Notes under the pieces: model-generated
The model's input: the letters and a program-made list of their open reading frames with translations, nothing else
Databases searched by the model: none
Told to the model about the DNA's origin: nothing
Part shown: one piece after another, positions 4,656 to 62,841 of the stretch
How positions within the stretch are numbered: the stretch's first letter is position 1
How the letters are laid out: every line of letters begins with the position of its first letter
Translations under genes and position numbers: made by a program
Assembly (NCBI GenBank): GCA_001784115.1
Contig: MFPD01000005.1
Location: forward strand, 7,074 to 71,073
Length of the DNA: 64,000 bases
DNA from: Candidatus Levybacteria bacterium RIFCSPLOWO2_02_FULL_37_18
Lineage (GTDB): Bacteria > Patescibacteriota > Microgenomatia > Levybacterales > UBA12049
Reading direction: 5' to 3'

Positions 4656-4822
4656 CATACAGTATAGAGTATATGGTATTATAGTATATAGCAAATAAAA
4701 TCTTGTTCCCGAATACAATATACTTTATACCCGATACTCTATACTCGTTTGGGCCTGTAGGTAAACGGCATACCGATACATTCGCATTGTATAATTCCGA
4801 GTTCAATTCTCGGCAGGTCCAC

Positions 4823-4898
4823 GGGCCGTTAGCTCAGTTGGCAGAGCGTTCGCATGGCATGCGAAAGGTCACCAGTCCAAATCTGGTACGGTCCACCA
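4823..4898 (+). tRNA. tRNA-Ala (anticodon GGC), CCA encoded
   Basis: cloverleaf GGGCCGT / TAGCTCAGTTGGCAGAGCG / TTCGC-ATGGCAT-GCGAA / ACCAG-TCCAAAT-CTGGT / ACGGTCC-ACCA; G3:U70 Ala identity pair; anticodon loop aTGGCat. Confidence 0.8.
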
Positions 4899-21675: not shown

Positions 21676-24600
21676 TTAATTTACTATTAACCAATTAAAG
21701 GGAATATCAGTTTTGGGTTGGTTGTTTACTCCCACAGTAAATGATTCATTTGGTACTTGGCGAAGGAGATACAAAACTTCATTATTTGTGTTGCCGTTTG
21801 GCGTGATATAAATAAGTGATTTTTCCGTCACCAAACTATTTCTAATGGTGAGTTCGGATTGGTATGCACTTATGGTAGCAATTCCTGCAGAGCCTGTGGC
21901 AATGATTTCCGAACTTGACAGAGCTAAAGCTTTACTGATCGGGCTTAGATTAAGCTTAGAAAATGTGCCGGAGCCTGAGGCTACTACATTTCCTTGTTCA
22001 CTCACTGCAAAAACAGCAGAGCCGGAAGCATTGGTAACAGTAAGCGTTTTTTCAAATGTAGCATTGCCTTTTACTTGCATATTTCCTTCGATATCAAACG
22101 TAATTAATCCGCCAAGGAAGTTAATACCTCCTTGTCTTAGCGGTTGGATTTCCAGACTGCTATCTAGCACATTAATAGAGTTATCTGTTAAAACAAGGCC
22201 GGTATTTGGGCTGCCGATACTAACAGTTCCTGTAAACGAGGCATCGGTAAAGGTGGAGGGACCGAGAGAAATAAAGCCATAATTAAACTTCGGAAAACTC
22301 AGAATACTCGGAGAATCAGATGAATTCAGATTTTTCAGATAATCAGATACGCTAAGGTTGTCTGCAATAATTGTTCCGGCGCGTAGAACTCCTCCAATGC
22401 TTGCATTACCACTATTGTTAAATTGTTCTATTGTTAAATTGTTAAATTGTCCAGATTGAGCTGTAAGTTGGCCTGAGAACGAGGCGTTGCCTGTACTATC
22501 TATAGTAGCAACAGCGCTGCCGGAGGCGTTTTGGACCTCCACGATAATGTCATTGCGAGGAGACACGTCTGACGTGTTCGACGAAGCAATCCCTTGAGAT
22601 TGCTTCGCTCCGCTCGCAATGACGAGTCTTCCGTTCACCACTACCGAATCAGAAGACAAGGGAGAAATGGTATCGGTATGGATTTGGTCAACGTAAGCAA
22701 TGGGAGAAACAACCTTAGTATCTAGTATTAAGTATTTAGTATTTAGTATATTCGTATTAAGCGTATCAATAGTTCCATTGGCAGCAGTGAGTGTTTGAGT
22801 TGCGAGCTCGGAAGTTTTGATAGAGCCTTCTACTGCGAGTTCTTTGGCATGAATGTAGCCGGCTTCTAGATTTGCAATAACAGCCTTACTAAAAGTTCCA
22901 ATACGATTTATAAGTTGGTCTGTTGCCTTGTTGTTTAAAGAAAATGATATGGTTTGGTCCTGTTGTGTTATAGTTTGGGGAACAGAACCAAATGTCGGAT
23001 CAAGATCAATCGAGAGATTACCGGTGTCAGTAAGATAAACATCGGGGTCGTGAAATGAAGGCTGGAGGATCGTGTTCACGATGCAGATATTATTGTCATT
23101 GTGAGGAGTACCGAGCTTGTCGAAGGATGACGAAGCAATTCCATCTGAAGTAGATTGCTTCACTTCGTTCGCAATGACAGAACAAGAAGGTTCTGAAAGG
23201 GCTCGGCCCACCACTCTTCCTGCCCGGGTTGCTTTCATGGCAACTCCAGGAACAGAACTGTTAGTAAGATAGTCTCCGGGTTTTATGTCTCCGCTCTCGG
23301 TCGAAACTTTTAAAGGCAACTGGCCAAGGAGGCCGACTAAAACATAGTTTGGGTCATTGTCATGGTCGCTTCCGCCGACAAAACCGGCTCTGTCTGAGAC
23401 AATTCCGAGGATATTATTGTTTGTTTGATCACACTTACCAACACCGCCGTCTTCTGCCAGACAGACAAGGTCACCGGGTTCAAAAGATTGCTTCGTCCTC
23501 CACGCTTCGCTCTGAGTCCTCGCAATGACATTACTTTTTCTAAAGTATTCTGCAAAGTCAACGCCGGTTGTGGAGTATTTGACTCCCCCTCCAAAACTTT
23601 GGATTTTTCCCTGAATCTGGCCGTTTCCATCCAGAAACGTAGTAAAATAATTTGTGTTTGATCCTGTTGTAAAACCTAATTTTAAAGCCAAGGCAACAGA
23701 ATTAGCACCTGTATCGGTATTTTCAATCATGGCTACTGCAGTTGCAGATTGACTATCGGAAACATGCAGTTTATAGGCAGGATTTGTGGTACCAATTCCA
23801 ACATTGCCGGTTGTACCCGAGACTAAAAATTTAGCAGCAGCAGTTGAATTTCCGCCAACCAGCAGATCATCAGTTATATTTGTCGGCGCAACTGTTCCAA
23901 GTGATCGTAAAAACGGCGGAGTCTGCCAGGTTGGAACACCGCCTAAGACAGTCAAAACTTGATTTGACGAGCCAATACTTCTTTTTGAAAGCGAAGTGGG
24001 ATTGGAAGATGCGGCATATAAAATATCGCCGGTTGAGTAGGTGGTTAGACCTGTTCCGCCATAATTTGCTTTTATTGATGTTGCCTGCCATGTGCCTGTT
24101 GAAATAGTTCCAACTTGTGTTAGAGAAGAATTTACAACAGCAGTTCCCAAAGTAGTTGCAGAGAGAACATCAGTTGCGTTAATTTGATAGGTTTTGCCGG
24201 AAGACAAGTTCATTGTGCCGGTATTTAGCACAGTGCCCGAACCATTGAGAGGGGAAAGAGTAATATTTCCGGTTGTATTTCCGCCGATAGTTAGGCTATT
24301 ATTCCCTGTTGTTTGAATACTTCCTGCTCCGGTTCTAAAACTTAAAGAACCGGATACAGAGGCACTTCCTGCTATATCAAGAAATGCAGAAGGGGTAGAA
24401 GTGCCAAAACCAATATTTCCTCCTTGAGTAATAACAAGATAGGAATTGGGGTTTGGCGTTGTTCCATTTACGCCAATTTGCAAATTGCCGGAAGTTGTAG
24501 AAATAGAAACAGCATAATCGAGTGTTTGTCCGCAGCCATCAGTAGTTGTGCATTGAACATGCAAAGAAGAAGGACCTACATATAGACTTTTAAATCGGGC

Positions 24601-26985
24601 AGAAGAGGATGCGCCCAAGTCAGTAACATTATCGGTTTGCGGGCCAAAATAGCCTGTGGCTTGAGAGTTTTTGGGATTGACAAGAATATTGCCGGTATTT
24701 GTTCCGCCAAGTGTGAGCGTTTGGTTATTGGTAGTTTGAATAAGGCCAGATACGTTATCAAAGGTAAAGTTGCCTTTGGAAATAATATTGCCGGATAAAC
24801 CTTCGATTCTCAGTTTTGATGAGTCAGACGCGGTTCCTCCAAGTATAAGATCATCGGTTGAATTCAAAGGCGAAATTACCTGGCTGTTTCTTTGCCACCA
24901 GCCCTGGGTTCCGGAAATAAGAGTGGGAAATACATTTTGAGTATAAATATTTTTCCAAGAAGCAAGAGGAGAGCCGATAGTATAAAGTCCGGTGTCAACA
25001 GGCGTAATATTTCCTTTGATATCAAGCGCATTTTGGGGAGCTGCAGTACCAATGCCAACCCAGCCGTCGCTGTCAATAACAAACTTGGTTGCGCCTGAGC
25101 TTGAAGCGGTAATAAGATCACCGGAGCTATTATTATTCACAATAAAAGAGGCAACCGCTGATTCAGTCGCGTTGATAATTACTTTATCGTCTATTTCAAC
25201 TGCTCCAGGGTTAAATTCTCCATTCATGGAGCTATTTATAATTGGTTTTTGAATATCAACAGAGCCAAACCCGTCAGGAGAAAGCTCGATATTGCCATTT
25301 GAACCCGGCACCGTGTTGAGAATTACAGACTTTCCGGAAAGTGTGAAAGTGCCGCCTGTGGCTTGAAATGTGGGAGAAGCATTTTGTCCGATGACTAAAT
25401 TTCCCGATGAGTTAAGAGACAGAACAACATTTTTTGCATCACCTTGGGTAATGGGCGAAAGTCCATCAAGAGTAAGAGCGTTTTGAGAGAATTGGGTGGT
25501 TGGGATTTGCTGACGGGGAGATAATTCTTCATCCGAGCCGACCTGAATGCCTAAAAAAAGCTTTTCGTTTTCAGAAAAAATAGATTCGGAAAGAGGGTTA
25601 TTTATTCCAAGTACAACAGAAAATGTTCCGTCAGAATTGGGACTTATGGTATGAACTTCTTTCCAAATTAAAGAATTTGAGAAATTGGTTGGGTGATTAT
25701 ACAAAGAAAAAGTTACATCTTTTGGGGAATTGATTGGATTATTGAGCCGATCCAGGAGTTTGCCTGTAAAAAAAAGAGTTTTTGGAGAAATATGAGTAGA
25801 AAGAATGGCTTTTGGCGGCGAATGTAAAAAATCAGTCTTATCGAAAAAGAATAATGTGCCACTCGTAACAATAATTATTAAAATGGAAAAATGAATATAG
25901 CTTGAAATTGGTGAAGCATGATATTGTTTGTACCATTTTGGTCTTTTGTGTTTGAGAAAAACAATTAATTTTTTATGGAAAGGAAGATAAGAAGTAGAGA
26001 TGGGCGCGTAAAAACTTTTGGGAATATTAGGAATATATGAAGATGATTGTTTTTGAAACAGTTTTAGAAAAGAGCTTTGTTTTTTTGCTTGATTGGCTTT
26101 TGCGAATTTTATTTTTTTTCTTAAAAAAAGAGATTCTGTCTGATTCACTAAAGCAGCCAGAGGAATGATAAAAAGATATTCCAGTATATAGTTTGATGCT
26201 TTAAGTAGTTTTTGGAATAGGCGGATGGGAGGGAAGCGAGAAAATAAATTGTCATTGCGAGGGTTTGAAAAACCCGAAGCAATCTCGAGATTGCTTCTCT
26301 CACTTTGTTCGCTCGCAATGACAGTGGGTTTATATTTTACATTCGATTCTAGGTCATCTACAGGTTTGATTATGCCTTCTTTTTCTATCCAGGCAAGATA
26401 TTTTCTTAGTGATGAGAGTTTTCTGTTGATAGATTTTGGAGCAAGCTTGGCTTCGTGAAGCAGTCTGTATTTGTATTCGTTAAAAAGAGAAGAGTCAATT
26501 TTTCTTAAGACATCTTGTTCTTTTAGGTTCCATGCATGGATTGCGCCGGTTACACGCTCTGCCCATTTTAAAAACTGGAGCACATCGTTAGTATAGTTTT
26601 TTATAGTAAGATTTGATGCGTTATAGACATACAAGTAGTTTTTAAATTCTTTTATGTGCCATATGTCTTCCTTTTTTGGAGAGGCGGGTAGAGATTTGTT
26701 AAAAGGATCTTTTAGAACAAGTCCTTCTAGTTTTAAGAAGCGAAAAAAGCTTCTCAAGGAAGACATATGTCTTTTAACTGTTTTAGGCGAAAGAGAAGTT
26801 TTTTCTTTTTTATAGATTTCGATAATGTGAGGAGTTATTTCCGGGGGGTTGAAGGTTTTATGAAAGGACTCTTGAAACCAACGGATAAACTGTCCTACAT
26901 CTGCCTTATAGTTTTTGACAGTTATTTTTGAAGGCTGTTTTTTCTGAGACTTCAAGAAAAGAATAAACGGTTGTAATAGATTCAT
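21676..26985 (-). CDS. giant surface protein (1769 aa): two tandem phage-integrase N-terminal SAM-like (core-binding) domains, in-frame palindromic element, TM helix (YIHFSILIIIVTSGTLFFF), giant ectodomain, conserved DFAEYFRK domain, C-terminal domain ending NWLIVN
   Basis: SAM-like pattern ITVKNYKADVGQFIRWF...LSPKTVKRHMSSLRSFFRFLKLEGLV and LTIKNYTNDVLQFLKW...APKSINRKLSSLRKYLAWIEKEGII; no stop between these and the TM/ectodomain. Confidence 0.75.
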   Translation of the reverse strand: MNLLQPFILFLKSQKKQPSKITVKNYKADVGQFIRWFQESFHKTFNPPEITPHIIEIYKKEKTSLSPKTVKRHMSSLRSFFRFLKLEGLVLKDPFNKSLPASPKKEDIWHIKEFKNYLYVYNASNLTIKNYTNDVLQFLKWAERVTGAIHAWNLKEQDVLRKIDSSLFNEYKYRLLHEAKLAPKSINRKLSSLRKYLAWIEKEGIIKPVDDLESNVKYKPTVIASEQSERSNLEIASGFSNPRNDNLFSRFPPIRLFQKLLKASNYILEYLFIIPLAALVNQTESLFLRKKIKFAKANQAKKQSSFLKLFQKQSSSYIPNIPKSFYAPISTSYLPFHKKLIVFLKHKRPKWYKQYHASPISSYIHFSILIIIVTSGTLFFFDKTDFLHSPPKAILSTHISPKTLFFTGKLLDRLNNPINSPKDVTFSLYNHPTNFSNSLIWKEVHTISPNSDGTFSVVLGINNPLSESIFSENEKLFLGIQVGSDEELSPRQQIPTTQFSQNALTLDGLSPITQGDAKNVVLSLNSSGNLVIGQNASPTFQATGGTFTLSGKSVILNTVPGSNGNIELSPDGFGSVDIQKPIINSSMNGEFNPGAVEIDDKVIINATESAVASFIVNNNSSGDLITASSSGATKFVIDSDGWVGIGTAAPQNALDIKGNITPVDTGLYTIGSPLASWKNIYTQNVFPTLISGTQGWWQRNSQVISPLNSTDDLILGGTASDSSKLRIEGLSGNIISKGNFTFDNVSGLIQTTNNQTLTLGGTNTGNILVNPKNSQATGYFGPQTDNVTDLGASSSARFKSLYVGPSSLHVQCTTTDGCGQTLDYAVSISTTSGNLQIGVNGTTPNPNSYLVITQGGNIGFGTSTPSAFLDIAGSASVSGSLSFRTGAGSIQTTGNNSLTIGGNTTGNITLSPLNGSGTVLNTGTMNLSSGKTYQINATDVLSATTLGTAVVNSSLTQVGTISTGTWQATSIKANYGGTGLTTYSTGDILYAASSNPTSLSKRSIGSSNQVLTVLGGVPTWQTPPFLRSLGTVAPTNITDDLLVGGNSTAAAKFLVSGTTGNVGIGTTNPAYKLHVSDSQSATAVAMIENTDTGANSVALALKLGFTTGSNTNYFTTFLDGNGQIQGKIQSFGGGVKYSTTGVDFAEYFRKSNVIARTQSEAWRTKQSFEPGDLVCLAEDGGVGKCDQTNNNILGIVSDRAGFVGGSDHDNDPNYVLVGLLGQLPLKVSTESGDIKPGDYLTNSSVPGVAMKATRAGRVVGRALSEPSCSVIANEVKQSTSDGIASSSFDKLGTPHNDNNICIVNTILQPSFHDPDVYLTDTGNLSIDLDPTFGSVPQTITQQDQTISFSLNNKATDQLINRIGTFSKAVIANLEAGYIHAKELAVEGSIKTSELATQTLTAANGTIDTLNTNILNTKYLILDTKVVSPIAYVDQIHTDTISPLSSDSVVVNGRLVIASGAKQSQGIASSNTSDVSPRNDIIVEVQNASGSAVATIDSTGNASFSGQLTAQSGQFNNLTIEQFNNSGNASIGGVLRAGTIIADNLSVSDYLKNLNSSDSPSILSFPKFNYGFISLGPSTFTDASFTGTVSIGSPNTGLVLTDNSINVLDSSLEIQPLRQGGINFLGGLITFDIEGNMQVKGNATFEKTLTVTNASGSAVFAVSEQGNVVASGSGTFSKLNLSPISKALALSSSEIIATGSAGIATISAYQSELTIRNSLVTEKSLIYITPNGNTNNEVLYLLRQVPNESFTVGVNNQPKTDIPFNWLIVN
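22549..22623. repeat. palindromic element (gtcattgcgag...ctcgcaatgac) in frame in giant gene 3 (VIASGAKQSQGIASSNTSDVSPRND)
   Basis: both termini present, inner gaagcaatc / gattgcttc arms. Confidence 0.8.
23096..23179. repeat. palindromic element (gtcattgtgag...cgcaatgac) in frame in giant gene 3
   Basis: termini plus inner gaagcaatt / agattgcttc arms. Confidence 0.75.
23487..23529. repeat. half palindromic element (gattgcttcgtcctccacgcttcgctctgagtcctcgcaatgac), identical to the right half of the intergenic copy at 27646-27692
   Basis: exact 43-nt identity with 27646..27692. Confidence 0.8.
26252..26323. repeat. palindromic element in frame between the SAM-like domains and the TM of giant gene 3 (VIASEQSERSNLEIASGFSNPRND)
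   Basis: gtcattgcgag...gaagcaatctcgagattgcttc...ctcgcaatgac. Confidence 0.8.
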
Positions 26986-27580: not shown

Positions 27581-27706
27581 CGAATTTCGCAGTTGTCATT
27601 GCGAGCGACCAAGTCAGACTTGGGAAGCGTGGCAATCTCATTGATGGGAGATTGCTTCGTCCTCCACGCTTCGCTCTGAGTCCTCGCAATGACAACTGCG
27701 AAATTC
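27581..27706. repeat. full-length (about 126 bp) two-tier palindromic element with extended arms cgaatttcgcagttgtcattgcgag / ctcgcaatgacaactgcgaaattcg; likely the intact form of the family
   Basis: perfect 25-nt terminal inverted repeats plus inner gcaatctc / gattgc arms; intergenic, upstream of the giant-gene block. Confidence 0.85.
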
Positions 27707-27754: not shown

Positions 27755-28705
27755 TTATTGATGTTTTTTGATCCTTTTTATAACAAAAAGAATCAGAATA
27801 AAAATACCAACAATTTCTCCGGTTTCTTTTAAAGGCAAGACAACGAATTGGACGCTTCGGGTAAATGTAGGGCCATGTTTGGACAAGGCAAGGGTAAGAC
27901 GCGCCGTATACGGTCCCAGGAGAAAGCCGTTTTGCCAAGACAATTTTGTCAGGTCACCCTCTGTGACTAAAAGTTTTTCCGAGTCTATGAGAATAGGTGA
28001 TTGTTTGATTCCTATTGCTCCAACTGTTTGAGAAAACATATTTTTGATCGTGATTATACCTTGAGGAAGTATCGCGTGACTGCCCGTGTTTCTAACTCTG
28101 AGCGTAAACGGAATCGGGCCTTTCTGAGAGAAGAAAGGACCGGAAAACTCTTCTATGGTGCCTTTCGGAGAAGAAGAAATGTTTTGAATTGAAAGTAGTA
28201 TATGGCTTGCAATTATTACTTGTGCTTTTGTAATAGTTTCTTTTTTCTCAAAAGTACTCGGTTCTGGATTAGATATAAAAAGAATAGAAAAATAATAGTC
28301 TGATTCTGTTTGTTCGGTAGGAATGTGGAGGGAAAAGGTAAGCGTTTTCTTTTGAAACGGTCCGAGTAATATCTTGTTGGTTGGCTCGTCGTCTTCTAAA
28401 ATGGTAACTTTTTTTAGAATATCCGGGTCTGGCTTTTTGTCAAAGTTCTCAAGATAGGATACATTTCCTTGACTGTCTTTGGCCCGAAATGGTTTGAGAA
28501 GAATTTCAAATTCCATTGGCTGCTCGGTACGGTTTTCTATACTAAGAGGCGTTTTGATAGTGTTGGGTGCTTTGGTTTGAATGGTAATAGAAGGCGGAGA
28601 AACTCTGAGCGATACCGAAGTTGCATATGCCTTGTTTAAAGGCAAAAGTGACATCCATGTCATTCCGAGCAAAGCGAAGAATCTTTTTAAATTTAAATTT
28701 TTCAT
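27755..28705 (-). CDS. secreted protein with N-terminal signal peptide and C-terminal TM anchor (IVGIFILILFVIKRIKKHQ); possible surface-assembly accessory protein
   Basis: signal MKNLNLKRFFALLGMTWMSLLPLNKAYA; part of the signal (RFFALLGMT) is encoded by a TGTCAT half-element at 28659-28683. Confidence 0.6.
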   Translation of the reverse strand: MKNLNLKRFFALLGMTWMSLLPLNKAYATSVSLRVSPPSITIQTKAPNTIKTPLSIENRTEQPMEFEILLKPFRAKDSQGNVSYLENFDKKPDPDILKKVTILEDDEPTNKILLGPFQKKTLTFSLHIPTEQTESDYYFSILFISNPEPSTFEKKETITKAQVIIASHILLSIQNISSSPKGTIEEFSGPFFSQKGPIPFTLRVRNTGSHAILPQGIITIKNMFSQTVGAIGIKQSPILIDSEKLLVTEGDLTKLSWQNGFLLGPYTARLTLALSKHGPTFTRSVQFVVLPLKETGEIVGIFILILFVIKRIKKHQ

Positions 28706-28709
28706 AAAT

Positions 28710-28857
28710 CTATTTGCTCGGGTCGATACAGAAAATTTCTTCGCGCCCGGCTTGGTTCAACTTTTACGTCTTCTGATCCACGTTACGGCTGTATTCCTTG
28801 GATGAATTACAGTTTATTCGCACATGCAAAATTTTGTATCTCCCCTCGCCTTAAACA
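28710..28857. repeat. 148-bp element, copy A (about 85% identical to 33748..33894)
   Basis: shared blocks ttcgcgcccggcttggttcaa, cttctgatccacgt, ttattcgcacatgc.aaatttt. Confidence 0.8.
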
Positions 28858-28868
28858 GTATAACAATT

Positions 28869-29606
28869 TTAATATGTCGGTACTGCGATATAAGTAACTG
28901 TGTTCGAGTACTGATTTGGTTTGAAGGTATTTGATATGTTTATTTTATAGATAATTTCTGATTTGCCGGTGGTTGTGTTAGCTGTTGCTCTTAGAACAGT
29001 TTGAGGAGATTGCTGTTTGGAATTATTGGCAAAATGCTTAAAGGTCTCGGGAATTAAAAAGTCATCCGCGCAATCCGAAGATATAAGATTGTCACAGCGG
29101 TAGCCGAATCCATACGTCAAAATATTTGACCACGTTGAGGCAATATCTTCTTTGCAAAAGCCGTCGTCGCAGGTAGTATCCGGAATTATGTCCGGGCTTA
29201 CCGCATTAATAAGTTCGTGGTTTTCATAAGCCGTAACAAAGTACCCAATAGATTTTGACCGGTTGGTAGAAAGAGTCGTGGTGCGGATGATAGGATTCGT
29301 TGGGGTAAGCATGCCAAAGTTGATTGTTGTATCGGAAACGGAAAATTCAAAGAAATCATCCGTGGTTATTATTGAAAAGGTTTTTTCTCCCTCCGGGGGA
29401 GGGGTAATAACCGGAATTTTTTGAGTTTGTTCTGCGGTTTGTTTGAGCTCAATTGTGTAATTGTCAGAAGACATGCTTTCAGCTCCTACAGAGCTGGAAA
29501 ATAATCCAATAAACGAATAAACGAATAATTCAATAAATAGCACAAGAATTTTTAATTTGAAATTTTTAATTTGAAATGAATTTTTAAAATTTAATTTTTT
29601 AAACAT
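28869..29606 (-). CDS. secreted beta-rich protein with signal peptide, 4 Cys, C-terminal YSNTVTYIAVPTY; hypothetical cell-surface component
   Basis: N-terminal hydrophobic signal KLKILVLFIELFVYSFIGLFSSSVGA; lies upstream of the giant-gene block on the same strand. Confidence 0.5.
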   Translation of the reverse strand: MFKKLNFKNSFQIKNFKLKILVLFIELFVYSFIGLFSSSVGAESMSSDNYTIELKQTAEQTQKIPVITPPPEGEKTFSIITTDDFFEFSVSDTTINFGMLTPTNPIIRTTTLSTNRSKSIGYFVTAYENHELINAVSPDIIPDTTCDDGFCKEDIASTWSNILTYGFGYRCDNLISSDCADDFLIPETFKHFANNSKQQSPQTVLRATANTTTGKSEIIYKINISNTFKPNQYSNTVTYIAVPTY

Positions 29607-29674
29607 TTTAATTTTATTGTCTTGCGAAGTAATATCCTGCTTCGCAGGAAAAATTGTAAATTTAAAATTAAAAA

Positions 29675-30130
29675 TTAATTCTTGGTTCCTTGTATTTCCT
29701 TGCTGTGTTCTCGGCCAAAAAAGAATGCTAAGGGTGAGACAAGAACAATTGATCCTACCTTTGCAATGTTTTCATATACAGCATTTGAAAGAATTTCCGG
29801 AAGAAATATAGCCACAATTCCCAGTACAAATACAAAAACAGTTGTCGGTTCAAAGACAAATACCAACCCAAACGTGATAAAATAAAGAAGAAAAAATAAG
29901 CCGGATGACAATTTACCGGTTATAAAAACAAAAAAAAGCACAATGGTAATAACGCCAAAAATAGCCAAGGGTTCTGGAATATGTTTTTTTCGAAACAAAA
30001 GAAATGCATATAATCCTGCCGCGATTATTCCCAGGATGAGATATATTGCATTAGAAAAAGGAAGAATATCGCGGACAAAAACAATTGCACAGGCTGTCAA
30101 AATAAGGAAGGATTGGTATAACAATTTCAT
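29675..30130 (-). CDS. small integral membrane protein (4 predicted TM helices), hypothetical
   Basis: hydrophobic segments throughout; 151 aa. Confidence 0.5.
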   Translation of the reverse strand: MKLLYQSFLILTACAIVFVRDILPFSNAIYLILGIIAAGLYAFLLFRKKHIPEPLAIFGVITIVLFFVFITGKLSSGLFFLLYFITFGLVFVFEPTTVFVFVLGIVAIFLPEILSNAVYENIAKVGSIVLVSPLAFFFGREHSKEIQGTKN

Positions 30131-30185
30131 GCTTGTAAGGGAAAACTATAACTATTATACTTAATATACCTATTATAACGATTAT

Positions 30186-33002
30186 ATGAAAGACTACAAG
30201 CCTTTGGAAATTGAGGTTAAGTGGAAAAAAATGTGGGACGAGAAAAAAATATACAGCCCTGATTTGGACAGCGTAAAAAGGCCATTTTATAACCTGATGA
30301 TGTTTCCCTATCCGTCTGCGGAAGGACTTCACGTAGGCTCGGTCTTTACATTCACCGGCGTTGATACATACGGAAGATTTAAACGCATGCAGGGATTTGA
30401 TGTCTTCGAACCCATGGGACTTGACGGGTTTGGAATTCACAGTGAAAACTATGCCTTAAAAGTGGGCCGCCATCCAAAAGAACAGGCAAAACGATCAGAA
30501 GAGAACTTTTATCGACAGCTTTCTTCTATTGGAAATGGGTTTGACTGGAGCAGAAAACTAGAAACATATGATCCAAACTATTACAAATGGACTCAATGGA
30601 TCTTTATACAGCTCTTTAAAAGAGGACTTGCATACAGAAAAAAAGCTCCGGTAAACTTCTGTCCTTCATGTAAAACAGTTCTTTCGGATGAGCAGGTCAT
30701 TGATGGGAAATGCGAGAGGTGTGGTTCGGTTGTCGAAAAAAGAGAGCTTGAACAATGGTTCTTTAAAATCACTGACTATGCAGAGCGACTTTTGAATAAT
30801 ATCCCAAAGTTGAACTGGACAGAAAAAGTTAAGATTGCCCAAAGGGATTGGATCGGAAAGCGGGAAGGAACCACAATCCGCTTTGTCATTGCGAGGACCC
30901 AGAACGAAGTGAAGGGGACGAAGAAATCTCAAAAAGATCAGATTATCATGGGTTCTGCGAACCCTCGCAATGACAGTCAATATATTGAGGTTTTTACCAC
31001 ACGGGGCGATACGCTGTATGGGGCGACGTTTATTGTTTTGGCACCCGAGCACCCGGTCGTCGCTTCGCTCCTCCGGAATTCAGAATTAGAAAAGATACGA
31101 AAGTACGTTGAGGAGGTCAAAAAGAAAACGGAGATTGAAAGGGGAGCACAAGGGAAAGAGAAGACAGGGGTATTTACCGGTTTATACGCGATCAATCCGA
31201 TTAATAATGAATCAATTCCTGTATGGATTGCAGATTACGCGTTGATGGGTTATGGCACAGGAGCATTATTTGGAGATGCGCATGACGAGCGGGACGTAGC
31301 GTTTGCTAAAAAATATGGAATTCCTCTAAAAGCAACTCTTATTACAGGAGACAAAGAAAGAGACGAGCGTATTCTAAAGCTTGAAGAATGTTTTACCGGA
31401 GACGGGACATTGGTTGATTCGGGGGAATTTTCAAGGTTGTCTTCACAGCAAGCACGGGAAAGAGTAGCAGAATGGCTCGAAAAGAATAAAAAAGGAGGCA
31501 GAAAAGTAACGTATCATCTTCGCGACTGGCTTATTAGCAGGCAGAGATACTGGGGGCCGCCGATACCGATGATCTACTGTCAAAGTTGTGCAGGTAAAGG
31601 CAGATCTTGGTTTAATTCCATTGACAGTAAAGAAGAGAATGTATCAAGTATTAAGTATAAGGTATCAAGCAAGGACGGGAAATTTCTTAATACTAAATAC
31701 GTAATACATACTACTGATGACATGGTAGGATGGTATCCAATTCCCGAGGAAGACCTGCCTGTCATCCTGCCCGATGTCCAAGATTGGAGGCCTGAAGGAA
31801 CCGGAGTCTCGCCCTTGGCAAATCATCCGGAATTTTATAAAACAACGTGTCCTAGTTGCGGTGGAAAAGCAAGGCGGGAAACAGACGTCTCGGATACATT
31901 TTTAGATTCTGCTTGGTACTTTTTTAGGTATTTAGCAACGGAGATACATGATGTGCCGTTTCCTTCGGAAGGGTTCATAAATTCCAAATCAACAAATCAA
32001 CAAATCAACAAATCAACAAATTTGATGATTGGAAATTGGAAATTGGAAATTGGAAATTTCGCGAAGCGAGTAAAGTGGCTTCCCGTAACTATGTACATTG
32101 GCGGAGCAGAACATTCGGTTCTCCACCTATTATACTCCAGGTTTATTACTATGGCGTTTAAGGATTTGGGTTTGATTGATTTTGAAGAGCCGTTTGCTCG
32201 GTTTTACGCACATGGACTTATTATTAAAGATAGAGCGAAAATGAGCAAAAGCAAAGGCAATGTCATAAATCCGGACGAGTATTTGGCAAAATACGGCGCA
32301 GATGTTTTACGGGCGTATTTAAGGTTTGTAGGGCCATTTGATATGGGAGGCGATTTTAGGGACAGCGGAATTGAGGGAATGCAGAGATTTTTGAAACGAG
32401 TTTGGAGATTGGTTAATGATGTCATCGCGAGCGAAGCGAAGCAATCTTCTGACCCGAAAGAGATTGCTTCGCCCTCCTTTGGCGAGGCTCGCAATGACAA
32501 TGAGGGAAAACGAGTAATGAATAGGATAATCAAGGGAGTAACAGATGATCTGGAGGCTCTGCGATTTAATACTGCCATGGCAAAGCTGATGACGTGGTAT
32601 AACTATCTTTCTCAGCAAAAAAATGTAAGTAAAAAAGAGCTTGAGACATTTTTAAAGCTTCTGGCGCCTATTGCGCCTTTTATAACCGAGGAATTATATC
32701 AAAATGTCATTGCGAGTCCGGAGGGCGCTGCAATCTCAGATGACGGAAGTTTTCGATCTGTTCATCTTCAACCGTGGCCGTCATACGAGCCTAAGATGCT
32801 GGAAGAAGGAGAAGTAACAATTGTGGTTCAGGTGAATGGGAAAGTTCGTGATTCGTTCACAGTTCATAGTTTACAGTTCACAGAACAAAGCAAAGTTGAA
32901 AAGAAAGCAAAAGAGAGTTCAAAGATAAAAAAGTATATAGAGGGGAAAAAGATTAAGAAAGTCATTTATGTTGAGGGGAAAATTATCAATTTTGTCGTCT
33001 AA
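30186..33002 (+). CDS. leuS: leucyl-tRNA synthetase, carrying three in-frame palindromic-element insertions and one heptamer-repeat insertion
   Basis: LeuS N-terminus MKDYKPLEIEVKWKKMW...FPYPSAEGLHVGSVFTF; KMSKSKGN motif; VKWLPVTMYIGGAEHSVLHLLYSRF. Confidence 0.9.
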   Translation: MKDYKPLEIEVKWKKMWDEKKIYSPDLDSVKRPFYNLMMFPYPSAEGLHVGSVFTFTGVDTYGRFKRMQGFDVFEPMGLDGFGIHSENYALKVGRHPKEQAKRSEENFYRQLSSIGNGFDWSRKLETYDPNYYKWTQWIFIQLFKRGLAYRKKAPVNFCPSCKTVLSDEQVIDGKCERCGSVVEKRELEQWFFKITDYAERLLNNIPKLNWTEKVKIAQRDWIGKREGTTIRFVIARTQNEVKGTKKSQKDQIIMGSANPRNDSQYIEVFTTRGDTLYGATFIVLAPEHPVVASLLRNSELEKIRKYVEEVKKKTEIERGAQGKEKTGVFTGLYAINPINNESIPVWIADYALMGYGTGALFGDAHDERDVAFAKKYGIPLKATLITGDKERDERILKLEECFTGDGTLVDSGEFSRLSSQQARERVAEWLEKNKKGGRKVTYHLRDWLISRQRYWGPPIPMIYCQSCAGKGRSWFNSIDSKEENVSSIKYKVSSKDGKFLNTKYVIHTTDDMVGWYPIPEEDLPVILPDVQDWRPEGTGVSPLANHPEFYKTTCPSCGGKARRETDVSDTFLDSAWYFFRYLATEIHDVPFPSEGFINSKSTNQQINKSTNLMIGNWKLEIGNFAKRVKWLPVTMYIGGAEHSVLHLLYSRFITMAFKDLGLIDFEEPFARFYAHGLIIKDRAKMSKSKGNVINPDEYLAKYGADVLRAYLRFVGPFDMGGDFRDSGIEGMQRFLKRVWRLVNDVIASEAKQSSDPKEIASPSFGEARNDNEGKRVMNRIIKGVTDDLEALRFNTAMAKLMTWYNYLSQQKNVSKKELETFLKLLAPIAPFITEELYQNVIASPEGAAISDDGSFRSVHLQPWPSYEPKMLEEGEVTIVVQVNGKVRDSFTVHSLQFTEQSKVEKKAKESSKIKKYIEGKKIKKVIYVEGKIINFVV
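30885..30974. repeat. palindromic element (90 bp, 30 aa, in frame) inside leuS: VIARTQNEVKGTKKSQKDQIIMGSANPRNDSQ
   Basis: gtcattgcgag...ctcgcaatgac termini. Confidence 0.8.
31985..32060. repeat. heptamer tandem repeats (caaatca x4 then ggaaatt x4) in frame inside leuS (KSTNQQINKSTNLMIGNWKLEIGNF)
   Basis: direct 7-bp repeats visible in sequence. Confidence 0.85.
32422..32499. repeat. palindromic element (78 bp, 26 aa, in frame) inside leuS: VIASEAKQSSDPKEIASPSFGEARND
   Basis: gtcatcgcgagcgaagcgaagcaatc...gattgcttcgcc...ctcgcaatgac. Confidence 0.85.
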
Positions 33003-33074
33003 ATTTAGCAATCATTTCGATTGAATGCCAGTGAGTATTTTTTATAAGATTAGATTGTAAAATATTGCCAAACC

Positions 33075-33734
33075 ATGAATTTTAGCCTCAATAATACCTT
33101 TTTTAAGGAATTTAGCTTCGAGCATCTTCGCTCTACTTATCCTATAATCATTAAAAAATACCGTTTTTCGCTCCTGCTTGGCATAGCAGGTCTGATATTC
33201 TTTGGATATGGTTTGATTACTTTATTAAGTTCGAGTAATTCTGATGATGAGATTGAGTATAAACCTGTTGTTGCTAACCAAACGAACGAAAATAAAGGGA
33301 CTATGGTTGTTGATGTCAGCGGAGCTGTGGTTAATCCCGGCGTGTATAAACTGAGTATTGATTCACGGGTTTGGGACGGCTTAATAAAAGCAGGAGGTTT
33401 ATCAAGCGGAGCAAACAGGGAATGGGTATCTAAGAATTTAAATTTAGCCGCAAAGCTTTCTGACGGAGGCAAAATATACATACCAACAGGGCAAACAGGC
33501 ATCACGAGCACCATGGGCAGCATAAAAGGAGAGAACTTAGGTTCGGTTGAGGGATTTATAGATATTAACACGGCAAGTGAAGGAGAGCTGGATTCGCTGC
33601 CGGGTATAGGGCCTGTAACCGCGCAAAAAATCATTCAAAACAGGCCATACAGTGCCACAGAAGACCTTATTTCAAAAAAAGTTGTTACAGGTAAAGTGTT
33701 TGAGAAGATTAAAGGGAAAATATCAGTGTACTAG
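33075..33734 (+). CDS. comEA: competence protein ComEA (SLBB domain plus helix-hairpin-helix DNA-binding)
   Basis: MVVDVSGAVVNPGVYKL...; C-terminal DINTASEGELDSLPGIGPVTAQKIIQNRPY HhH motif. Confidence 0.85.
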   Translation: MNFSLNNTFFKEFSFEHLRSTYPIIIKKYRFSLLLGIAGLIFFGYGLITLLSSSNSDDEIEYKPVVANQTNENKGTMVVDVSGAVVNPGVYKLSIDSRVWDGLIKAGGLSSGANREWVSKNLNLAAKLSDGGKIYIPTGQTGITSTMGSIKGENLGSVEGFIDINTASEGELDSLPGIGPVTAQKIIQNRPYSATEDLISKKVVTGKVFEKIKGKISVY

Positions 33735-33747
33735 TGTACTAAATATG

Positions 33748-33894
33748 CTTATTCGCTCGGTTCGATATAGAAAATTTCTTCGCGCCCGGCTTGGTTCAAT
33801 TTCTATGTCTTCTGATCCACGTAACGGCTTTACTCCTTGGCTGTTGGTGCAATTTATTCGCACATGCGAAATTTTATATCTCACCTCGCTTTAA
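33748..33894. repeat. 147-bp element, copy B (about 85% identical to 28710..28857), directly upstream of the comEC start
   Basis: aligned by eye over its whole length to copy A. Confidence 0.8.
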
Positions 33895-33897
33895 AAT

Positions 33898-35208
33898 ATG
33901 AACAAAGTTCAGATCGCAGTTGCAGTATTTTTATTTATTGCACTTTTGTTGAGGTTCTATTTCTACTTCCATAATCAAATTCCTTATCAAGACGGGGAGA
34001 AAGTAGAACTGGAAACCACGCTTTTTTCCCAACCAACCGTAGGCAGATTTAATCAAAAACTATTTATCCAAACCAAGCGGGGTCGAGTTTGGGTCATACT
34101 ACCTACGTATCCTCAGTATCATTACGGAGATATTATCCAAATTTCAGGCTCAATAAAATTAAAATCAAGCACTCAGAATAGTGGAATGCTAAGGAAAGAA
34201 AGGGTTATTCCGGTAATCTATTTTCCCGAAGTTGCGCCTGGAAAAAATGATAAAAATTTTGGGTTAGCCCCGATTCAATCGGGGTTAGCAATTGCTTCTT
34301 TCTTTCGCCAAAAAATGATTACGCTTTTTCAAAATTCTCTCTCTTCACCTTCGTCCAGTCTTTTGCTGGGAATTGTTTTTGGGATTAAAGAGTCCGTGGG
34401 TACGCAATTTACCTATCATTTACGAGTGTCGGGGGTTATGCACGTGGTGGCTGCGTCAGGAATGAATGTGACCATGGTAATTGCTTTTTTAACGCCGATT
34501 TTTTTATTAATCTTTCGGCGCCAAATAGCATTACTGCTTGTTGGTGTATGTATCCTATTTTACGCGTTTGTTTCAGGGCTCCAGGCATCGATTGTGCGGG
34601 CAAGCATTATGGGAATGTTTGTTTTAGCAGCTCAAGTCACGGGCAGGCAAACATGGCCTCTCTATGGGCTTTGTATGGCCGGATTTTTAATGCTTTTTAT
34701 AAGTCCTCAAACACTTTTTGACATAGGGTTCCAACTTTCGTTTATATCAACACTCGGATTATTGTTTATTCGACCGCTTATTGGTTTTAAAAATGTATTA
34801 GGAGATGATATGGCAACAACTATCTCTGCTCAAATCGCGACACTTCCCATACTCCTTGGGAATTTTGGCAGTTATTCAGCAGTTTCTGTGGTTGTAAATG
34901 GGTTGGTATTATGGACAGTACCAATTCTAATGATTATTGGAGGAATTGGGGGGCTGATTGGCCTTGTATTTGAACCACTAGGTAAACTTCTCCTTTTTGT
35001 CTCCCTCCCTTTTTTGATATATTTTGAGATGGTAGTGTCATGGTTTGGAGAGCATTCGGGGACAATCTCAGTATCTTCTTTTCCGTGGGAACTTGGAGCG
35101 GGGTATTATTTGATACTTAGTTCCTTTGTTCTCTATTTCCAGAAAACTCGGAATACTCGGAAAATCAGTAATTCAGCACATCAGAAAGCCAGAAAATCAG
35201 AACAATGA
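33898..35208 (+). CDS. comEC: ComEC/Rec2 competence channel, membrane portion (DUF4131 plus Competence domain)
   Basis: LRVSGVMHVVAASGMNVTMVIAF ComEC signature; polytopic. Confidence 0.8.
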   Translation: MNKVQIAVAVFLFIALLLRFYFYFHNQIPYQDGEKVELETTLFSQPTVGRFNQKLFIQTKRGRVWVILPTYPQYHYGDIIQISGSIKLKSSTQNSGMLRKERVIPVIYFPEVAPGKNDKNFGLAPIQSGLAIASFFRQKMITLFQNSLSSPSSSLLLGIVFGIKESVGTQFTYHLRVSGVMHVVAASGMNVTMVIAFLTPIFLLIFRRQIALLLVGVCILFYAFVSGLQASIVRASIMGMFVLAAQVTGRQTWPLYGLCMAGFLMLFISPQTLFDIGFQLSFISTLGLLFIRPLIGFKNVLGDDMATTISAQIATLPILLGNFGSYSAVSVVVNGLVLWTVPILMIIGGIGGLIGLVFEPLGKLLLFVSLPFLIYFEMVVSWFGEHSGTISVSSFPWELGAGYYLILSSFVLYFQKTRNTRKISNSAHQKARKSEQ

Positions 35209-36071
35209 AGAAGCATCTACTTATTATTTGTCTTTCTCTTTTAGCTTTAGCGGGGTTGATCTTGTATCAGCGTTTTATATTTTTTGATGGTAAACTACAT
35301 CTGGTTTTTTGTGATGTGGGCCAGGGAGACGGAATATTTATTCGCACACCGAATGGAAAAAATATTATTGTAGACGGAGGGCCGGATGACAAGATTGTAT
35401 CGTGTTTGTCTTCTCACATGCCGTTTTGGGAGAAAATTATACACATGGTTATACTCACTCATCCCCACGCGGATCACCTAAACGGCCTAATTCCTGTAAT
35501 AAAACGATATACTGTTTTATCTTTTGATACTGAAAAAATCGAAAATAAAACAGGAGGGTTTTTGCAGTTAACGCAAGTAATTCAAAAAAAGAAAATACCA
35601 ATGAGGTTTCTTTGGCAAGGAGACACTTTTGGCATAAAAGACGGAGTTACGCTTACTATTGCCGGCCCAAGTAAAGAGTTTTTGGATGAGACGAGTCCTG
35701 GAGGAACAATCGGAGAGACAAAAGAATTCGGCTCCGTCCAAACACTTGTTTCGTATGGTTCTTTTAGAATACTTCTTACAGGTGATAGTCAGGCACAAGA
35801 ATTAGAAGATGCGCTAAAAAGTGGTATTTTGAATACTATTGATGTATTCCAGATACCACATCATGGTTCGAAAACGGGAGTTAATCGGGAAATAATCGAA
35901 AAGCTTAATCCGAAATTAGTAGTGATTTCTGTAGGAAAAAACAACTACGGCCACCCAAGTCCGGAGGTTGGGGAGTTATTAAGAAATAAAGAGATTAAAG
36001 TGCTAAGGACAGATAAAAATGGAAGTATAGAGATTATAAGCGACGGGAGGAAATTTGAAATTAAAAAATAA
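35205..36071 (+). CDS. ComEC C-terminal metallo-beta-lactamase domain as a separate, overlapping ORF
   Basis: HPHADH motif (VILTHPHADHLNGL), IPHHGS; 4-nt overlap ATGA with the upstream ORF. Confidence 0.75.
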   Translation: MKKHLLIICLSLLALAGLILYQRFIFFDGKLHLVFCDVGQGDGIFIRTPNGKNIIVDGGPDDKIVSCLSSHMPFWEKIIHMVILTHPHADHLNGLIPVIKRYTVLSFDTEKIENKTGGFLQLTQVIQKKKIPMRFLWQGDTFGIKDGVTLTIAGPSKEFLDETSPGGTIGETKEFGSVQTLVSYGSFRILLTGDSQAQELEDALKSGILNTIDVFQIPHHGSKTGVNREIIEKLNPKLVVISVGKNNYGHPSPEVGELLRNKEIKVLRTDKNGSIEIISDGRKFEIKK

Positions 36072-36918
36072 TATTCTCAGATTCGTCTTCTAAGATAACA
36101 TCTTGAATTTGGTCAAAATCGTCGTTTTCGTTTACAAAAGACTCGTAAGAAAGTTGGGGATTGGTTTTAGAAAAATAACTTAATACTTCATCCGGTTGCG
36201 TCCATTCCGTTGTTCTCTGCCCAATATATTCAGGATACGAAGATGGTTGTCCCCAGCTTCGCAAGGCGTGGCCTTGCGAAGCTAAAGCTTGTTTATGAAT
36301 ATAGCGTGATAAATGAAGAAATTGTTCTTCCGTTAGAACAGAAACCCCTTTATACGTATCTTGATATAATGATCCCGTTCTCTTGTATTTCTTATTAAAG
36401 TACATAGTATATCGTGTGCATAATGAATTCATAAATTTATCTATCGAAAGTGCATTTTTTTGCTTGACAAAAAAATGAAAATGATTTGGCATTAAGCAAT
36501 AGGCAAGTAAGGTAATTTCGTCCGCAAAATTATTAAGTCGCAACGCTTTTAGAATTTTATATTTTTCTCTAGAAGATATGTTGGGATCAGCAAGTTGTGT
36601 CCTAAGACCTATTTCGTCTTTCGGAAGTAAATATTCCTCAAGATAACTTAAAAACACAGCATAATCTTGCATGTCTAAAAATATTAATCTTTTTTCAACC
36701 CCTCGATTATAAAGATGATAGTAGCCATTTTCTAAATATTGTTTGACTCTGTTTTTAGCAGGCATATAAAAAGTGTAAAGTTTGCAAAGTTTTTTGTCAA
36801 GAGGTAATTGAGTTCCAAGGCGTGGCCTTGCGAAGCTAGCACTTGCGAAGCTAGCACTTGCGAAGCTAGCAAAACGGGTACCAAGGGTACCAATACGGTA
36901 AAAACCCGTCAAGGTCAA
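36061..36918 (-). CDS. REP-associated tyrosine transposase (RAYT) / IS200-IS605-like HuH Y1 transposase; likely true start near 36765 (MPAKNRVKQY); upstream in-frame part is 15-bp tandem repeats
   Basis: YHLYNRG...NHFHFFV (HuH) ...SRYIHKQALA (catalytic Tyr region), the Y1_Tnp pattern of RayT-like proteins. Confidence 0.65.
   Translation of the reverse strand: MTLTGFYRIGTLGTRFASFASASFASASFARPRLGTQLPLDKKLCKLYTFYMPAKNRVKQYLENGYYHLYNRGVEKRLIFLDMQDYAVFLSYLEEYLLPKDEIGLRTQLADPNISSREKYKILKALRLNNFADEITLLAYCLMPNHFHFFVKQKNALSIDKFMNSLCTRYTMYFNKKYKRTGSLYQDTYKGVSVLTEEQFLHLSRYIHKQALASQGHALRSWGQPSSYPEYIGQRTTEWTQPDEVLSYFSKTNPQLSYESFVNENDDFDQIQDVILEDESENIIF
36826..36870. repeat. 15-bp tandem repeat x3 (cttgcgaagctagca) at the 5' end of the RAYT ORF, plus the palindrome aaggcgtggccttgcgaag also present at 36262-36284
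   Basis: direct repeats; encoded peptide ASFASASFASASFA. Confidence 0.8.
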
Positions 36919-39489: not shown

Positions 39490-41385
39490 ATGAAACATGT
39501 TATTCGCAAAGAGATCGAAAGAGTTCTTAAGGACATGGGACTGGTTCGTGTCGAGTTTACGATAGAGCATCCGGGGGAAAGTTCGCATGGAGACTACTCG
39601 TCAAATATAGCGTTGGTTGTGTTTGGTGAATTCGAAGCACGAAACTCGAAAATCGAAACAAATTCAAAAAATATAAAACTCAAAACACCCTTGGAATTAG
39701 CACAGGAAATAGTAAAAAATTTCAAATTTCGGATTTCATCCATTCAACAAGTTCAGGACAAGAATTTCAAATTTATTGACCGGGTGGAAGTGGCGGGGCC
39801 TGGGTTTATAAATTTCTGGTTGACAAAGGAGTATTTGTTTGATTCGATGATTCGAATCATTAAAGCAAAAGAAGAGTTTGGGAAAGGAGGTGGTTTAAAA
39901 AATAAAAAAGTTATGGTTGAATACACAGATCCCAATCCGTTTAAAGAGTTTCATATAGGACACTTATATAGCAACGCGGTTGGAGAGTCATTAAGCAGGC
40001 TTTTTGAAGCACAAGGGGCAGAAGTCAGAAGGGCCAATTATCAAGGAGATGTGGGAATGCACGTTGCAAAATCCCTGTACGGGATTTTGCAACAATTCAG
40101 AATTCACAATTCACAATTCAGAATTGGCGAAGAATTACAGAAACTCGAGAAAGAATCACTCAATGAACGGATTGAGTTTTTGGGGCAGGCGTATGTATTG
40201 GGAGCAAAAGCTTATGAAGAAGACGAAAAGGTCAAGCAAGAGATACATGTCTTAAATAAGCAAATTTACGAACTTGATCCAAAAATTAAAGACATCTATT
40301 TACAAGGAAGACAATGGAGTCTGGATTATTTTGAGACAATTTACAAGCGCTTGGGTACAAAATTTGATGGTTATTATTTTGAAAGTGAAGCAGGAGAAAT
40401 TGGTTTACAACTTGTTTATGAATATCAAAAAAAGGGAGTTTTTGCAGAAAGCGAAGGTGCTGTAATTTTTCCCGGAGAAAAATATAATCTCCATAACAGG
40501 GTGTTTGTAAATTCCTTGGGATTGCCAACGTACGAAGCCAAAGAACTAGGGCTGAATAAAAAAAAGTATGAAGATTATCCTTTTGATGCGTCTGTTATCG
40601 TAACAGGAAATGAAATCAACGAGTATTTTAAAGTGCTTCTTTGCGCGATGGAACAAGTAATCCCCGAAGTTGCCCAAAAAACCAAACATATTGGTCATGG
40701 CATGGTACGTCTTCCACAGGGAAAAATGTCGTCAAGGACTGGCAATGTAATAACAGGCGAGTGGCTTTTGGATGAAGCAAAGCGGAGAATTAGTTCAAAA
40801 TTTTCGGAAATGGCGGACAAGACAGCAGAAATGGTAGCGGTAGGAGCGGTAAAGTATGCGCTTTTAAAATCCGGAATAGGGAGGGATATTGAATTTAGTT
40901 TTGACGAGTCGATAAGTTTGGAAGGAAACTCAGGGTCGTACCTCCAATACACGTACGTGAGGACGCAGAGTGTACTCTCTAAATTTCAAATAAATACCAA
41001 TAACCAAAAAGATTTAAAATTGGAAATTGGAAATTGGAAATTGGAAATTGAAGAAGAAAATATTCTTCGACTATTGTATCGGTTTCCGGAAGTGGTGGAA
41101 GAAGCAAGCGGGCACTTGGCGCCGAATTATATTTGCAGTTACTTGTTTGAGCTGGCTCAGGCCTTTAATCTGTTTTACCAAAAACACAAGATCCTAGATC
41201 AAAACGTCATCCCGAACTTGTTTCGGGATCCCCAACATTCTGATAATGAGATGCTGAATCGAGTTCAGCATGACAAGAATAAGGATGATACAAAAAGGTT
41301 CAGAATACTGCTTACTGCATCAGTGGGGCAGGTATTATACAATGGATTATACATGCTGGGTATTGCGGTTCCGGAGAGAATGTGA
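39490..41385 (+). CDS. argS: arginyl-tRNA synthetase (start MKHVIRKE at 39490), with two in-frame heptamer-repeat inserts and one in-frame palindromic element
   Basis: HPGESSHGDYSSNIAL, FHIGHLYSNAVGESL (HIGH-like), C-terminal DALR anticodon-binding region ending PERM. Confidence 0.9.
   Translation: MKHVIRKEIERVLKDMGLVRVEFTIEHPGESSHGDYSSNIALVVFGEFEARNSKIETNSKNIKLKTPLELAQEIVKNFKFRISSIQQVQDKNFKFIDRVEVAGPGFINFWLTKEYLFDSMIRIIKAKEEFGKGGGLKNKKVMVEYTDPNPFKEFHIGHLYSNAVGESLSRLFEAQGAEVRRANYQGDVGMHVAKSLYGILQQFRIHNSQFRIGEELQKLEKESLNERIEFLGQAYVLGAKAYEEDEKVKQEIHVLNKQIYELDPKIKDIYLQGRQWSLDYFETIYKRLGTKFDGYYFESEAGEIGLQLVYEYQKKGVFAESEGAVIFPGEKYNLHNRVFVNSLGLPTYEAKELGLNKKKYEDYPFDASVIVTGNEINEYFKVLLCAMEQVIPEVAQKTKHIGHGMVRLPQGKMSSRTGNVITGEWLLDEAKRRISSKFSEMADKTAEMVAVGAVKYALLKSGIGRDIEFSFDESISLEGNSGSYLQYTYVRTQSVLSKFQINTNNQKDLKLEIGNWKLEIEEENILRLLYRFPEVVEEASGHLAPNYICSYLFELAQAFNLFYQKHKILDQNVIPNLFRDPQHSDNEMLNRVQHDKNKDDTKRFRILLTASVGQVLYNGLYMLGIAVPERM
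41015..41050. repeat. heptamer tandem repeat (ggaaatt x4) in frame in argS (LKLEIGNWKLEIEEE); a second tract (ttcacaa / ttcagaa) lies at 40093-40126
   Basis: direct 7-bp repeats. Confidence 0.85.
41206..41274. repeat. palindromic element (gtcatcccgaacttgtttcgggatcc...gctgaatcgagttcagcatgac) in frame near the argS C-terminus
   Basis: TGTCAT-type termini with two internal hairpins; encodes VIPNLFRDPQHSDNEMLNRVQHDK. Confidence 0.75.
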
Positions 41386-42856: not shown

Positions 42857-42902
42857 GTCATCCTGAATTTATTTCTGGATGCCGAAACAAGTTCGGCATG
42901 AC
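42857..42902. repeat. palindromic element (gtcatcctgaatttatttctggatgccgaaacaagttcggcatgac), intergenic before ndk
   Basis: same family as 41445..41490 (shared arms in a different order). Confidence 0.7.
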
Positions 42903-42913
42903 AAGGAGAACAT

Positions 42914-53237: not shown

Positions 53238-53246
53238 GTATTTTCG

Positions 53247-53298
53247 CAGTCCTAAACTTGATTCAGAATCCTAGATGCTGAATCAAGTTTAGCATGAT
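53247..53298. repeat. palindromic element (ctaaacttgattcagaatcctagatgctgaatcaagtttag) between rpmI and rplT
   Basis: perfect 15-nt inverted arms. Confidence 0.7.
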
Positions 53299-53345
53299 AT
53301 TATTTTAAACTGTAATTTTGAATTTTGATTTTTTAATTTTATAGT

Positions 53346-62747: not shown

Positions 62748-62789
62748 AAAGTTAAAAATTCAAAATTCAAAATTACAGTTTAAAATAAT

Positions 62790-62841
62790 GTCATGCTGAA
62801 CTGGATTCAGCATCTAGGACACTGAAACAAGTTCGGGGTGA
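62790..62841. repeat. palindromic element (gtcatgctgaactggattcagcat...ctgaaacaagttcggggtgac) between purH and purD
   Basis: TGTCAT-type termini, internal hairpins shared with 41445.. and 53765.. copies. Confidence 0.7.

Follow-up and report, generated by a model that had tools for sequence, protein, structure and literature searches.

A ~146-nt hairpin-forming repeat inserted between genes at two sites of a Levybacteria genome, one of them the comEA-comEC spacer

The window analysed here, by which we mean the whole 64-kb stretch of DNA from an uncultured bacterium of groundwater, carries the DNA-uptake genes comEA (33075-33734), with SLBB and HHH_3 domains, and comEC (33898-35208), with a Competence domain, the latter followed by a separate metallo-beta-lactamase ORF. 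A ~146-nt repeat lies in the spacer between them, and a second copy on the same strand lies between two minus-strand ORFs, one of 245 aa (28869-29606) and one of 316 aa (27755-28705) with a weak WxLIP_PGBD match, whose start is placed at 28663 instead (302 aa) by the gene callers in four of six assemblies. Copy A (28711-28855, plus strand) sits between the stop of the 245-aa ORF and the start of the 316-aa ORF, comes within 5 nt of the ATG at 28705 and is antisense to its neighbours. Copy B (33750-33895, plus strand) sits in the sense direction between the comEA stop (33734) and the comEC ATG (33898), its 3' end 2 nt short of that ATG. The orientation of the element is, in other words, unrelated to gene direction. 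Between the copies are leuS, comEA and two ORFs for membrane or surface proteins. Phage_int_SAM_1 domains occur in a giant ORF near the copies, and the gene of an IS200-like Y1 transposase (Y1_Tnp), flanked by the palindrome CAAGGCGTGGCCTTGCGAAGCT, lies 2.2 kb downstream of copy B. Among the proteins encoded nearby, none showed a catalytic integrase domain, and a Pfam scan of the neighbouring ORFs gave no reverse-transcriptase domain. Adjoining copy A is a REP-like short hairpin (GTCATTCCGAGCAAAGCGAAGAATC, 28659-28683, no strand assigned), a separate and unrelated second insertion in the same spacer or in the 5' end of the gene. Hairpins of the form GTCATTSC...GSAATGAC are abundant in the window, and the arms of the element do not match them.

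We aligned the two copies and found them to be 86.3% identical over 146 columns (blastn, E 4.5e-45), with 19 substitutions (12 transitions and 7 transversions) and one 1-nt indel. This confirms the two same-orientation copies of about 150 bp and ~85% identity described in the initial annotation, whose coordinates were right within 1-2 nt. The likeness ends at the base of a terminal stem, and its extension into the flanks is not significant (P 0.13 on the right, 0.86 on the left). Three conserved blocks had also been singled out, and they are present; however, the longest identical run, 31 nt, is what random placement of 20 differences readily gives (P = 0.12), so the blocks are by themselves uninformative.

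How widespread is the element? Searches of the 64-kb window with blastn, with nhmmer and with a covariance model of A and B gave no third copy, and neither did nhmmer and the covariance model when ~8 kb past the left end of the window and five relatives were added. The same-genome sequence searched in this way amounts to ~72 kb, or ~7% of a roughly 1-Mb genome, and the copy count is accordingly two in ~72 kb of the source genome. Both copies recur at 100% identity to the window on six contigs from different samples. The ComEA of the window is encoded identically on Rifle groundwater assembly contigs, including those of GCA_001782355.1 and GCA_001783775.1, and the ComEC protein is listed by NCBI under Candidatus Levybacteria bacterium RIFCSPHIGHO2_12_FULL. 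Among 185,579 GTDB species genomes a two-block pattern gave 5 matches, close to the estimated chance number as judged by count alone, and an 18-mer scan of JGI metagenomes gave 13, all of them in unrelated high-GC coding DNA; the source genome is absent from both collections, and these scans say nothing on the rest of it. In IMG/VR, one scan returned four short matches and another none, with no copy of the element, and the plasmid and phage collections held no match by blastn in distant mode. Close relatives of the species are absent from the databases: apart from one protein of 77% identity that is listed with no contig, the nearest other ComEC is 60% identical, and the best other homologue of the 245-aa protein at site A is 42% identical, so that site A has no close relatives in the database.

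The spacers of more distant Levybacteria are nevertheless informative. The comEA-comEC gap measures 12, 41, 21 and 10 nt in four of them (L013, L014, L033 and L034, respectively), and the gap at site A measures 1 nt in L014, 1 nt in L033 and 7 nt in L034. Judged by these sequences, both copies are insertions into short spacers between co-directional genes. The genes between the copies keep the same order in relatives that are devoid of the repeats; thus, the 5-kb interval holds its ancestral gene order and is not an att-bounded island. At copy B, the 7-nt direct repeat AAATATG flanks the insert (33741-33747 and 33894-33900, plus strand, the right member including the comEC start codon), and taking out the insert together with one AAATATG would restore a 10-nt spacer, as in relatives (empty junction …GTACTAAATATGAACAAAG…). 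The repeat is a possible target-site duplication, as read from the sequence of copy B; the flanks of copy A have no equivalent. Because copy B is sense and copy A antisense, and because both sites are empty in relatives, a shared cis-regulatory role as promoter or leader is unlikely, a point on which we agree with the initial annotation.

What structure does the element adopt? Folded separately, and on either strand, the two copies are each predicted to form a closing stem, P1. It pairs GC-uc-GGG-uc-GAUACAGAA with UUUUGUAUC-uc-CCC-uc-GC, that is, 14 pairs interrupted by two symmetric and conserved UC/UC internal loops (2x2), and the ends of the element accordingly bear terminal inverted repeats of the form GCnnGGNnnGATAYA. 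In copy A the 5' and 3' arms of P1 lie at 28716-28733 and 28832-28849 (plus strand). In copy B the 5' arm reads GC-uc-GGU-uc-GAUAUAGAA (33755-33772, plus strand) and the 3' arm UUUUAUAUC-uc-ACC-uc-GC (33872-33889, plus strand), the former carrying one side of two compensatory changes and the latter their partners. Indeed, only four substitutions fall in the 28 positions of P1, and together they make up two compensatory pairs, GGG/CCC to GGU/ACC and GAUACA/UGUAUC to GAUAUA/UAUAUC, so that pairing is kept and none of the 14 pairs is broken. When 19 substitutions were placed at random in a simulation, the probability of at least two compensatory pairs in P1 was 0.004, and 0.0008 with no pair broken. 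Such an outcome is improbable under random placement, which argues that pairing of the element ends is under constraint; since P1 forms on both strands, RNA and single-stranded DNA are not told apart as the level of that constraint. An internal hairpin, P2, is predicted at 28745-28789 in copy A and at 33784-33828 in copy B (plus strand in both); its paired positions are identical between the copies and the substitutions lie in its 14-nt loop. A variable segment follows P2, and the interior is not a full-length palindrome. The stem-loop has a predicted stability of -31 to -39 kcal/mol in either orientation, and the folding z-scores of the copies are modest (-1.6 to -2.75). The initial annotation had held that its proposal would suffer if only two copies existed and no conserved secondary structure or expression was found; two copies are indeed all that we found, yet a conserved secondary structure is present.

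The comEA-comEC spacer holds other inserts elsewhere in the lineage. In the closest relative with data (L012, ComEC 60% identical), it contains a 138-nt GC-rich long hairpin (z = -5), the last 24 nt of which match the 3' arm of the element at 18 of 24 positions (shuffle P ~0.002-0.004) and the stem of which has a similar layout (GC, GGGG:CCCC, A-U-rich). The interior of this insert is not alignable to the element, and the covariance model of A and B, which scores the spacer at 5 bits (E 3.7), lends no support to homology. In a further relative (L035, 50% identical), the spacer is 160 nt long and is built from two REP-like hairpins, GTCATTCC...GGAATGAC, in inverted arrangement (z = -8). As both spacers contain long hairpin inserts, such inserts are common in the lineage and this spacer has been struck repeatedly. 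The comEA-comEC spacer appears to have received its inserts independently in three Levybacteria lineages.

Several known kinds of sequence were considered and set aside. The pair is not the template and variable repeat of a diversity-generating retroelement (DGR), as the 19 substitutions affect all bases, with no restriction to adenines, and the neighbours scanned contain no reverse-transcriptase domain. Neither is it an integron attC site: the RYYYAAC and GTTRRRY cores are absent from both ends and the flanking genes are syntenic housekeeping genes. We also rejected a REPIN of the neighbouring Y1_Tnp, because the arms of the element differ from the unrelated palindrome that flanks that gene. 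A parent insertion sequence with the same ends was sought, and the arms occur nowhere else in the window or the related loci (~7% of the genome).

Comparison with characterised families places the element in familiar company while setting it apart from each of them. ERIC (IRU) elements of enterobacteria are imperfect palindromes of ~127 bp, palindromic along most of their length and present in tens to hundreds of copies. The element resembles them in size, in being non-coding, in its hairpin fold and in occupying transcribed spacers within operons in either orientation to transcription; it differs in sharing no sequence similarity with them, in that just the terminal 14-20 bp pair strongly and in that two copies are known. 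Correia (NEMIS) elements of Neisseria are MITEs of 100-155 bp with 26-bp terminal inverted repeats, a TA target duplication and hundreds of copies. They too have terminal inverted repeats and insert between genes, and Correia elements are co-transcribed and form an RNA hairpin; by contrast, the arms of the present element have conserved internal mismatches, only one of the copies shows a duplication, of 7 nt, and copies are few. PATEs, derived from IS200/IS605, are characterised by hairpin-dependent recognition, a target duplication that is not obligatory and strand-specific insertion. Both copies of the element are likewise on the same strand, an arrangement that two copies would show half the time by chance, but no conserved tetra- or pentanucleotide target stands 5' of them and a search for a cognate TnpA with matching ends gave none. 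REPINs, finally, are inverted REP doublets mobilised by RAYT Y1 transposases. Like these, the element is a hairpin unit of ~100-150 nt with compensatory changes, a Y1_Tnp gene lies 2.2 kb from copy B and the L035 insert is a REP-like doublet; unlike REPs, the arms are not themselves palindromic, and they match neither the palindrome of Y1_Tnp nor the GTCATTSC...GSAATGAC hairpins. Compensatory changes across the hairpin have been documented in REPINs (PMC3116915).

What, then, is the element? The initial annotation had proposed a small structured RNA, a MITE or a recombination site, and the MITE-like option fits best because the insertions are precise, the boundaries fall at the base of the terminal stem and the stem is kept by compensatory changes. 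We put at roughly one in two the probability that the element is a low-copy, non-coding, non-autonomous palindromic insertion element of the MITE, ERIC, Correia or REPIN kind. Counting against this reading are the two copies in ~72 kb, the lack of an autonomous element with matching ends in the window, the AAATATG duplication seen at B and not at A, the different palindrome of Y1_Tnp, the interior that is not fully palindromic and the modest z-scores. Some of the same facts would suit a neutral, one-off ectopic duplication of a hairpin-containing spacer, for example by template switching or repair synthesis, with neither a mobility mechanism nor a function: just two copies were found, which share an orientation and lie 5 kb from each other, no transposase with matching ends turned up as a partner, and the substitution spectrum looks like ordinary drift. 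We nonetheless consider such an accident unlikely, since both ends of the segment coincide with the stem base, the copy landed exactly between tightly spaced genes, and two compensatory pairs with none broken are improbable under drift (P ~0.001-0.004). A site-specific recombination site (att, dif or integron attC-like), or direct repeats bounding a mobile 5-kb segment, is very improbable and finds no support beyond the bracketing of 5 kb by direct repeats and the nearby giant ORF with Phage_int_SAM_1 domains; the enclosed gene order is the same in relatives without the repeats, the RYYYAAC/GTTRRRY cores and a catalytic integrase domain are missing from the ends and the neighbours, respectively, and, at 86% identity, A and B are too divergent for a freshly made attL/attR pair.

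The possibility of a function selected by the host deserves more weight. The element could be a structured RNA, either an intercistronic stem-loop or a small RNA, that tunes comEA and comEC, with B as the old functional copy and A as a recent ectopic duplicate. The compensatory changes that keep P1 and the confinement of the P2 substitutions to loops are what one would expect of such an RNA, as is the 138-nt hairpin of L012 in the same spacer, with its similar 3' end (18/24) and stem layout; the hairpin insert of a third lineage, L035, points the same way. Yet the covariance search that the initial annotation had suggested gave no Rfam family for the element, with no match at the gathering score in the whole window and just spurious short matches at E<=10 for both copies, and no promoter-like or terminator-like site is common to A and B. 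Moreover, four other relatives lack the insert, the L012 spacer reaches just 5 bits (E 3.7) under the covariance model, copy A would be transcribed antisense and the z-scores are modest. We rate a host-selected RNA as possible though doubtful, and clearly behind an insertion element. More speculative still, and to be entertained with considerable reserve, is that Levybacteria (CPR) possess an undescribed structured RNA, with a UC/UC-loop closing stem and a three-way-junction interior, that has occupied the comEA-comEC spacer since before the split from L012 and sets how strongly the DNA-uptake genes are expressed relative to each other, with copy A as a recent mobile duplicate. That copy B is instead a small protein gene is barely credible: it does contain a 51-codon ORF with an ATG start (33745-33897), but copy A has no such start codon and is shifted in frame by the indel, and a search of 5.8e9 protein clusters with the six-frame translation of both copies (concatenated) returned nothing.

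How might a palindromic insertion element have reached its two sites? One copy would be the source of the other, at a distance of 5 kb, through a process in which the hairpin is recognised or required, and the copying agent could be a transposase acting in trans or, alternatively, a single-stranded hairpin intermediate. Dependence on pairing, at the DNA or the RNA level, would then be what preserves the stem. As the two insertions are internal to apparent operons, a stable stem-loop presumably now separates cistrons in both transcripts. Going by REP, ERIC and Correia elements (PMC2229807, PMC3184786, PMC3116915), such a stem-loop could change how the mRNA is processed or how stable it is between cistrons. 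It could serve as a barrier to exonucleases or as a site for RNase III or RNase E, and it could uncouple the expression of the flanking genes, for instance of comEA versus comEC.

In practical terms, neither an ORF nor a regulatory leader should be annotated for the element. It opens no long-standing question, and may offer a natural case of intercistronic hairpins modulating competence genes. If the insertion-element reading is true, it would add one more family of small palindromic insertion elements, in a CPR bacterium whose mobile DNA is barely catalogued, and it would mean that tiny, tightly packed genomes tolerate 150-bp hairpin inserts within operons, including the comEA-comEC operon for DNA uptake.

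Short REP-like hairpins, with the sequences GTCATTGCGAGCGAAGCGAAGCAATCT and GTCATCCCGAACTTGTTTCGGGATCC and variants of these, form an abundant family across the window (12757-12784, 22597-22624, 23485-23530, 27649-27694, 28659-28683, 30883-30944, 32421-32447, 41206-41276, 42857-42904, 53246-53300, 62790-62844 and further members). Several of them lie inside ORFs and keep the reading frame, a likeness to the Rickettsia palindromic elements that is seen, for example, in leuS. Sequence comparison showed that leuS segment 30927-30980 is missing in three orthologues, and LeuRS is 938 aa long in the window versus 822-904 aa in relatives. The gene also contains tandem microsatellites, built from the 8-mer AAATCAAC and the 7-mer GGAAATT, which code for STNQQINKSTNL, an insertion that the orthologues do not have. 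Microsatellites of this type reappear 10 kb from leuS, and the tandem arrays map to 31971-32058, 42504-42564 and 41002-41063. REP-like hairpins together with short AT-rich tandem repeats also make up a 91-nt inverted repeat pair (53255-53345 and 62743-62833, 90% complementary, 9.4 kb apart), which represents a further family of composite repeats (D6-D8).

Elsewhere in the window, two tRNA-Ala genes (4751-4898, anticodons CGC and GGC) stand side by side with zero spacer. Near window ~4-5 kb, one assembly of the same population, L037, carries a different gene set: beyond the downstream side of the gene for the LysM/M23 peptidase, its segment 12165-20470 differs from two other assemblies (L036 and L038). 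The difference is a rearrangement or replacement at strain level. A minus-strand ORF of 1769 aa (21676-26985) has two Phage_int_SAM_1 domains at its N-terminus and no recognisable integrase catalytic domain; 238-nt repeats (19368-19605 and 24081-24318) were described as internal to it, and a similar giant gene occupies the syntenic position in L033, a locus of another Levybacteria lineage.

ComEC is encoded by two ORFs (33898-36071) that overlap by 4 nt; one, of 436 aa, carries the Competence domain, and the other, of 288 aa, the metallo-beta-lactamase domain. Most relatives examined share this split, so it is a trait of the lineage rather than an artefact of a frameshift; in the Levybacteria locus L035, an additional ORF lies between the two parts. 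Immediately after the comEC/MBL genes, and adjoining them, is an IS200-like, RAYT-like Y1 transposase gene (36061-36918, minus strand). The palindrome CAAGGCGTGGCCTTGCGAAGCT is present in tandem copies upstream of this gene and once more within its own ORF, and may be the cognate REP of the transposase; the repeats listed with the gene lie at 36262-36291, 36816-36860 and 20953-20982.

What occupies the comEA-comEC spacer in other lineages? Long hairpins are inserted there in L035 (239-398, 160 nt, z = -8) and in a further Levybacteria locus, L012 (112-249, 138 nt, z = -5), and these inserts are unrelated or barely related in sequence. The spacer is only 10-41 nt in four other Levybacteria lineages. 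These comparisons suggest that the comEA-comEC spacer is an insertion hot spot for hairpins, or that there is selection for a stem-loop at this site.
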